A stretch of DNA of 64,000 bases, from assembly GCA_037305845.1 (NCBI GenBank), contig CP147778.1:1504001-1568000 (forward strand), in the 5' to 3' direction. The notes beneath the pieces were generated by a model, which made no database searches, was not told the DNA's origin, and saw only the letters and a list, made by a program, of their open reading frames with translations. This DNA is from Candidatus Freyarchaeum deiterrae (GTDB lineage Archaea; Asgardarchaeota; Jordiarchaeia; Jordiarchaeales; Jordiarchaeaceae). The translations under genes and the position numbers were made by a program. This document shows positions 43,141 through 43,326 of this stretch, piece by piece (the first letter of the stretch is position 1; every line of letters begins with the position of its first letter).

Positions 43141-43326
43141 GGGCCCCTAGCTCAGCCTGGTATGAGCGCCGCGTTACCCATACCTTATCACTAGAGGAAT
43201 GGGAGCGAAGGCAACTTGATACCAAAATCGCGGAGGCCGCGGGAAACCCCTAACAATAAGTAAGGGTTCGCGAATTCGAATCCGCTGAGAATCCTCTCAA
43301 CGGCGGAGCTCCCGCGGGGTCCACCA
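43141..43326 (+). tRNA. tRNA-Ala(GGC), four introns (33/34 at 43176-43209; 37/38 at 43214-43227; 53/54 at 43244-43274; 59/60 at 43281-43309)
   Basis: Acceptor GGGCCCC/GGGGTCC with the G3-U70 Ala identity pair, +A+CCA. Spliced CCGCG-TT-GGC-AT-CGCGG and GCGGG-TTCGAAT-CCCGC. Confidence 0.88.

Follow-up and report, generated by a model that had tools for sequence, protein, structure and literature searches.

A four-intron tRNA-Ala(GGC) gene in Candidatus Freyarchaeum deiterrae with its anticodon on a 4-nt exon and a predicted 33/34-before-37/38 splicing order

A tRNA-Ala(GGC) gene of Candidatus Freyarchaeum deiterrae is divided by four introns that leave the whole anticodon on a 4-nt exon, and the geometry of its splice motifs suggests that the intron at 33/34 would be cut out and the RNA ligated before the intron at 37/38 can be removed. 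The gene lies in a 64,000-nt stretch of DNA, here called the window (contig CP147778.1, positions 1,504,001 to 1,568,000). Table 1 lists its exons and introns together with the other tRNA genes discussed below. The explanation that we consider very probable is a functional gene matured by the splicing endonuclease EndA and the ligase RtcB, with 33/34 leaving before 37/38 and the two T-loop introns leaving in either order; the map and the motif geometry are read from the sequence, and from them we infer the order.

Table 1. Exons and introns of the tRNA-Ala(GGC) gene, and other tRNA genes of the same genome
Feature	Position	Strand	Description
tRNA-Ala(GGC) gene	window 43141-43326	+	5 exons, 4 introns
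Exon 1	window 43141-43175	+	tRNA positions 1-33: 5' acceptor strand, D arm, 5' anticodon stem, U32 U33
Intron 33/34	window 43176-43209	+	34 nt, relaxed BHB
Exon 2, micro-exon GGCA	window 43210-43213	+	4 nt: anticodon 34-36 and A37; invariant in 7 orthologues
Intron 37/38	window 43214-43227	+	14 nt, hBH (bulge-helix-loop) motif
Exon 3	window 43228-43243	+	positions 38-53: U38, 3' anticodon stem, variable loop, 5' T stem
Intron 53/54	window 43244-43274	+	31 nt, HBh' motif
Exon 4, micro-exon TTCGAA	window 43275-43280	+	6 nt: T loop 54-59
Intron 59/60	window 43281-43309	+	29 nt; HBh' with 53/54 present, full hBHBh' once 53/54 is removed
Exon 5	window 43310-43326	+	positions 60-76: U60, 3' T stem, 3' acceptor strand with U70, A73, CCA
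tRNA-Val(GAC)	genome 1547486-1547561 = window 43486-43561		published table (PMC11291895)
tRNA-Phe(GAA)	window 43648-43842	+	introns 9/10, 30/31, 53/54, 59/60; central helices all 4/4
Published Met-CAT	window 41581-41739	-	parses as tRNA-Glu(CTC): intron 34/35 inside the anticodon, 51-nt T-loop insert
tRNA-Pro(GGG)	C1:1798836-1799053		hand parse: five introns 15/16, 24/25, 25/26, 37/38, 59/60; 1-nt exon
tRNA-Glu-TTC	C1:1790195	-	absent from published table
tRNA-Pro-TGG	C1:1501840	-	absent from published table
tRNA-Ser-GCT	C1:1690305	-	absent from published table
tRNA-Leu-CAG	C1:1631535		4 introns; absent from published table
Probably tRNA-Ser-CGA	C1:1647848		parse uncertain; absent from published table
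Initiator tRNA-Met	C1:1729308		5-nt exon 11-15; absent from published table
tRNA-His	C1:1921595		4 introns; just downstream of the EndA alpha gene; absent from published table
Published 'Ser-AGA'	C1:1326639		parses as Cys-GCA with 4 introns

Joining of the five exons (35, 4, 16, 6, and 17 nt in order) gives a 78-nt RNA that folds into a perfect cloverleaf with a G3:U70 pair, A73, and an encoded CCA, and ARAGORN calls this spliced sequence tRNA-Ala(ggc). Neither ARAGORN nor Rfam made a call for the unspliced gene when run on the raw window. We wrote a multi-intron finder that combines a tRNA profile with the BHB (bulge-helix-bulge) motif. Given the start position alone, it returned exactly the four introns of this gene with the top score among the 38 genes run, while scores at unrelated genome starts in genome scans were about 42 or less. 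Because the finder accepts only helices with three or more pairs and divides some genes into too many pieces, the genome-wide counts that it gives are approximate and biased by the motif. A strict or relaxed BHB motif is present at every junction, with central pairs of 3/4 at 33/34 (accompanied by inner and outer stems) and 4/4 at each of the other three. The five exons are collinear within 186 nt, which rules out a split or permuted tRNA gene. The initial annotation had placed the gene, its GGCA anticodon exon between introns 33/34 and 37/38, and a TTCGAA exon between introns 53/54 and 59/60; all of its coordinates proved correct, the joined exons give the cloverleaf, and the borders of the TTCGAA exon are matched by intron-less relatives. 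A second Ala(GGC) gene was not found in genome-wide finder scans, and GCC and GCT codons are common in the long ORFs of the genome. The locus is thus probably a functional, single-copy tRNA-Ala(GGC) gene.

The borders were also examined by a motif-free test on orthologues from 14 distinct loci, one of them on a truncated contig. For every one of the four junctions at least one relative lacks the insert, and the flanking exon sequence is identical. The Borrarchaeum-type orthologues have an uninterrupted anticodon loop; the Jordarchaeaceae-like (sister family) orthologues contain introns 33/34, 53/54, and 58/59 and lack 37/38; four same-genus genomes (loci L003-L006) carry 33/34 and 37/38 only and lack both T-loop introns. 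All four introns are present in one congener and in one metagenome contig. These two copies bear directly on the suspicion, prompted by the failure of ARAGORN, Rfam, and the published tRNAscan-SE table to report the gene, that the locus is a pseudogene or an assembly artefact that never matures. We regard this as highly improbable, since the identical four-intron layout recurs both in another species-level genome and in a metagenome contig of independent origin, the exons are nearly unchanged between those copies while the intron loops have diverged, and no other GGC gene was found in the genome.

The order of splicing in the anticodon loop follows from the central helix of intron 37/38, which spans the 33/34 junction. 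Before removal of 33/34 this helix is AAGG/CCAA with two of four pairs, and once the junction is joined it becomes UUGG/CCAA with four Watson-Crick pairs. The gain from 2/4 to 4/4 occurs in all seven orthologues that share the intron, in agreement with the earlier proposal that this helix (TTGG/CCAA) forms only after 33/34 is joined. In the folding model the probability of the 37/38 motif rises from 5e-5 to 0.6 in this gene when 33/34 is joined, and the gain is about 10^4 to 10^5-fold in all seven orthologues. The nicked and ligated states were also compared by explicit energy evaluation: the helix is unfavourable by about 4 kcal/mol on cut, unligated RNA versus favourable by about 3 kcal/mol on ligated RNA (coaxial stacking across the nick is ignored here, and the folding model further ignores modifications and protein). 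The unfavourable helix on nicked RNA fits a cut-ligate-cut pathway. As the 4-bp central helix of 37/38 depends on U33 and G34 being joined, removal and ligation of 33/34 before 37/38 is well supported by the modelled motif geometry. Two other arrangements were tried and rejected: removal of 37/38 first through a three-way junction with 33/34 looped out (modelled P ~3e-8), and a second intron at 36/37 or 38/39, whose helix does not pair on inspection.

The 33/34 motif itself is relaxed, with a CGCG/AGCG central helix (3/4 pairs), an inner stem of 5 bp, and an outer stem of 2 bp. In Freyarchaeum-type genes a G31-A mismatch adjoins its 5' bulge; the sister-family helix at the same position is a perfect 4/4. 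The productive 33/34 fold accounts for only about 0.5% of the modelled ensemble and a non-cleavable shifted register with a 1-nt bulge for 93%, so enzyme binding or transient folding must select the productive fold. That register would correspond to a first intron starting 2 nt later, with the helix CGUU/AGCG at 4/4 pairs and another anticodon loop, for example ACG. Despite its dominance in the modelled fold, this start has almost nothing to recommend it: the 5' bulge is 1 nt, and with a proper 3-nt bulge the shifted helix is 2000-fold rarer than the right register (2e-6 vs 5e-3); the product is a 9-nt loop, or else the second intron is left with 2/4 pairs; the loop sequence in orthologues free of these introns is UU-GGC-AU; and the tRNA body has the alanine identity pair G3:U70. 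In the unspliced precursor an alternative hairpin AAG-GCAA-CTT of only 3 bp with a GNRA loop is possible across the 4-nt exon (window 43201-43222).

Conservation of intron 37/38 follows the same geometry: in the seven orthologues its last six nucleotides (CCAAAA) are invariant and all seven loop columns vary. These seven sequences represent about two groups, so the pattern is modest evidence. One compensatory change was found in the inner stem of intron 33/34, and none in the 37/38 central helix, which never varies among the seven orthologues (about two groups) and so gains no covariation support. It could be argued that the gene is spliced with a loose order in the anticodon loop: a broad-specificity EndA would act on 37/38 even where the helix is nicked or only 2 bp long, and the 4-nt exon would be held in place by contacts with the enzyme or the RNA, or else some precursors would be lost. 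EndA does have a specificity-widening loop, the folding model omits stacking across the nick, and weak motifs occur elsewhere in the genome: 21 of 86 parsed introns have only 3/4 central pairs (terminal, mostly purine-purine mismatches in 16 of the 21; the parse omitted eight genes and Ser-CGA), and two introns of the hand-parsed tRNA-Pro(GGG) score 3/4 and 2/4. This reading is nonetheless very unlikely in our judgement, because a 2/4 helix with two A-A mismatches and no inner stem compares poorly with the 4/4 helix after ligation, the A residues that can pair only with U32-U33 are invariant in the seven orthologues, and algal multi-intron tRNAs lose 37/38 last (PMC3728597). An ordered 33/34-then-37/38 removal remains our preferred reading.

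The T-loop pair behaves differently. The 53/54 motif has a CGCG/CGCG central helix (4/4) and an inner stem of 5 bp, and the 59/60 motif has a UUCG/CGGA helix (4/4, one G-U). The 59/60 helix does not reach beyond the 6-nt exon, and each of the two motifs therefore keeps its 4/4 pairs with the other intron in place or removed. If 53/54 is removed first, 59/60 gains a 7-bp outer helix and its modelled probability rises about 7-fold or more; if 59/60 is removed first, the probability of the 53/54 motif falls about 20 to 130-fold. The modelled joint probability of the two motifs is 9e-6, versus 0.047 and 0.002 singly. These shifts, and the U54 common to both motifs, could be taken to mean that 53/54 must precede 59/60 just as 33/34 precedes 37/38, both micro-exons being guarded by an obligatory order. 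We consider this unlikely. Only the outer helix of 59/60 depends on the order; its central helix does not depend on removal of 53/54, and HBh' motifs are substrates of the EndA type found here (ARMAN-2 comparison paper). Moreover, intron 59/60 of tRNA-Phe shows no modelled gain from removal of 53/54, and in the sister-family genes with 53/54 and 58/59 (L007-L009, L036), which have a 5-nt exon between the two introns, the modelled preference is reversed: retention of the upstream intron leaves the pairing of the 58/59 helix equal or improved. Because both central helices form with the other intron in place, the T-loop order is at most a preference in the model, which in this gene favours 53/54 as the first to leave. 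The obligatory sequential cycles that the initial annotation had proposed as a guard against micro-exon loss are therefore supported for the anticodon pair, where the 37/38 helix reaches 4/4 only after 33/34 is joined, and not for the T-loop pair, which is 4/4 in either state. Prevention of micro-exon loss is plausible as a consequence of motif geometry and does not imply a selected function.

The same annotation had noted that the T-loop pair is shared with tRNA-Phe. The positions 53/54 and 59/60 are indeed shared, and only the positions: the intron sequences are 48% and 34% identical, within the shuffled range, and are unrelated. Copying of T-loop introns between Ala and Phe or His genes was rejected, with identity at shuffle level. 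Among the alanine isoacceptors the 53/54 introns of the congener's three Ala genes (L062, L060, L002) are nearly identical (81-94%), and intron 59/60 of this gene is 69% identical to that of Ala-TGC of the same genome, a pattern that points to common descent of the introns or to gene conversion between Ala genes. The congener Ala-TGC copy on contig C422 (L062, genome G002) has no matching 3' acceptor strand and may be truncated. In the four congeners without T-loop introns, the T stem resembles that of their own Ala-CGC genes; loss by conversion from an intron-free isoacceptor would fit.

The distribution of the anticodon-loop introns bears on their history. Intron 37/38 occurs only in the lineage that also bears 33/34, sister-family genes have 33/34 alone, and the complementarity of 37/38 is restricted to the U32-U33-G34-G35 junction that splicing creates in this isoacceptor. 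If 33/34 is older and shared, 37/38 might have inserted into the context of an RNA that was spliced beforehand, or have adapted to one, with ligation acting as a strict checkpoint that keeps the whole anticodon on the 4-nt exon. We put this forward as a speculation that is probably wrong; if true, the gain would give a rare glimpse of the route by which Asgard tRNA introns are acquired.

The genome encodes the enzymes that such maturation would need. Two EndA-family genes are present, that for the alpha subunit near C1:1,921,000 and that for the beta subunit near C1:1,733,000. EndA alpha matches the Aeropyrum catalytic subunit (E 8e-43) and has the specificity loop, known across Asgard, with K66 at the place of Aeropyrum K44; the second protein aligns without the catalytic motif, which fits a structural subunit. 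RtcB and archease are also encoded. The match of the RtcB gene (L023, C1:1451548-1452798, minus strand) begins at model position 20. The host thus has a predicted broad-specificity two-subunit EndA and an RNA ligase, and we propose that the precursor would be matured by them in four rounds, each of two cuts and one ligation. Intron 33/34 would be cut and ligated first, followed by 37/38, so that the 4-nt anticodon exon would always stay attached to one neighbour. No fixed order would hold for the T-loop introns, although the model favours removal of 53/54 first; since the two motifs rarely coexist, the two introns would rarely be cut together. The anticodon and T arms would be processed largely independently. 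As for multi-intron tRNAs of other archaea, the order would be a by-product of introns that lie 4 nt from each other and are selected to remain spliceable, rather than a dedicated regulatory device.

Four-intron tRNA genes and junction-dependent ordered splicing are already known in archaea, and no new mechanism is involved. In Freyarchaeia and Atabeyarchaeia 92-95% of tRNA genes have introns (PMC11291895; Goswami 2026, 10.64898/2026.10.13.758758), and Arg-TCT, Ile2-CAT, and Leu-GAG are four-intron genes in the published table for this genome (PMC11291895). For these Asgard families the October 2026 preprint counts as many as five introns in one tRNA gene; its census covers only genes found by tRNAscan-SE with introns scored in the fully spliced context, it states that splicing has been shown for none of the newly found Asgard insertions, and we found no discussion of splicing order in its text (10.64898/2026.10.13.758758). 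Archaeal interdependent ('nested') pre-tRNAs (Sugahara 2007; Tocchini-Valentini 2009) contain a last intron that forms its BHB only after the others are processed, and they resemble tRNA-Ala(GGC) in the junction-dependent motif and in an enzyme of the same class, associated with relaxed motifs (as described in PMC3978253 and PMC3728597). Multi-intron tRNAs of Cyanidioschyzon merolae are processed in order, as seen by RT-PCR, with 37/38 last (Soma 2013, PMC3728597); unlike tRNA-Ala(GGC), these are eukaryotic and their motifs mostly fold independently, so that order follows stability or position and not junction dependence. The Thermoproteales maximum in a 2014 review is three introns per tRNA, compared with four introns and a 4-nt exon here (PMC4033280). 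ARMAN-2 has a published 53/54 and 59/60 pair and hence the same 6-nt exon, but differs in lineage, in its epsilon2 enzyme type, and in having two introns only. Methanothermobacter tRNA-Pro carries introns at 32/33 and 37/38 with a 5-nt anticodon exon. A literature search for short exons combined with splicing order found no papers. The features that set this gene apart are a 4-nt exon holding the entire anticodon, the conservation of this exon across the genus, and the omission of the gene from the published annotation. A shorter exon occurs in the same genome, the hand parse of tRNA-Pro(GGG) giving one of 1 nt. With one junction-dependent and one junction-independent intron pair in the same molecule, the 186-nt RNA offers a clean natural substrate for the study of cut-ligate-cut coupling with Asgard EndA and RtcB.

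The gene also supplies a missing member of the tRNA complement published for a reference Asgard genome. The published table of 38 tRNAs for Ca. Freyarchaeum deiterrae contains neither Ala-GGC nor the neighbouring Phe (PMC11291895). At least nine elongator or initiator genes are missing from it and two are mis-typed (Table 1), and the published intron count for tRNA-Pro(GGG) is three. Heavily interrupted tRNA genes can therefore escape tRNAscan-SE-based censuses. The 51-nt T-loop insert of tRNA-Glu(CTC) has an internal repeat and is possibly two introns. Partial second copies of Ser-TGA (near C1:1598100-1598330, minus strand) and Leu-GAG (1888860-1889092, plus strand) have 5' ends that look missing or displaced, and are possible remnants of duplication or integration.
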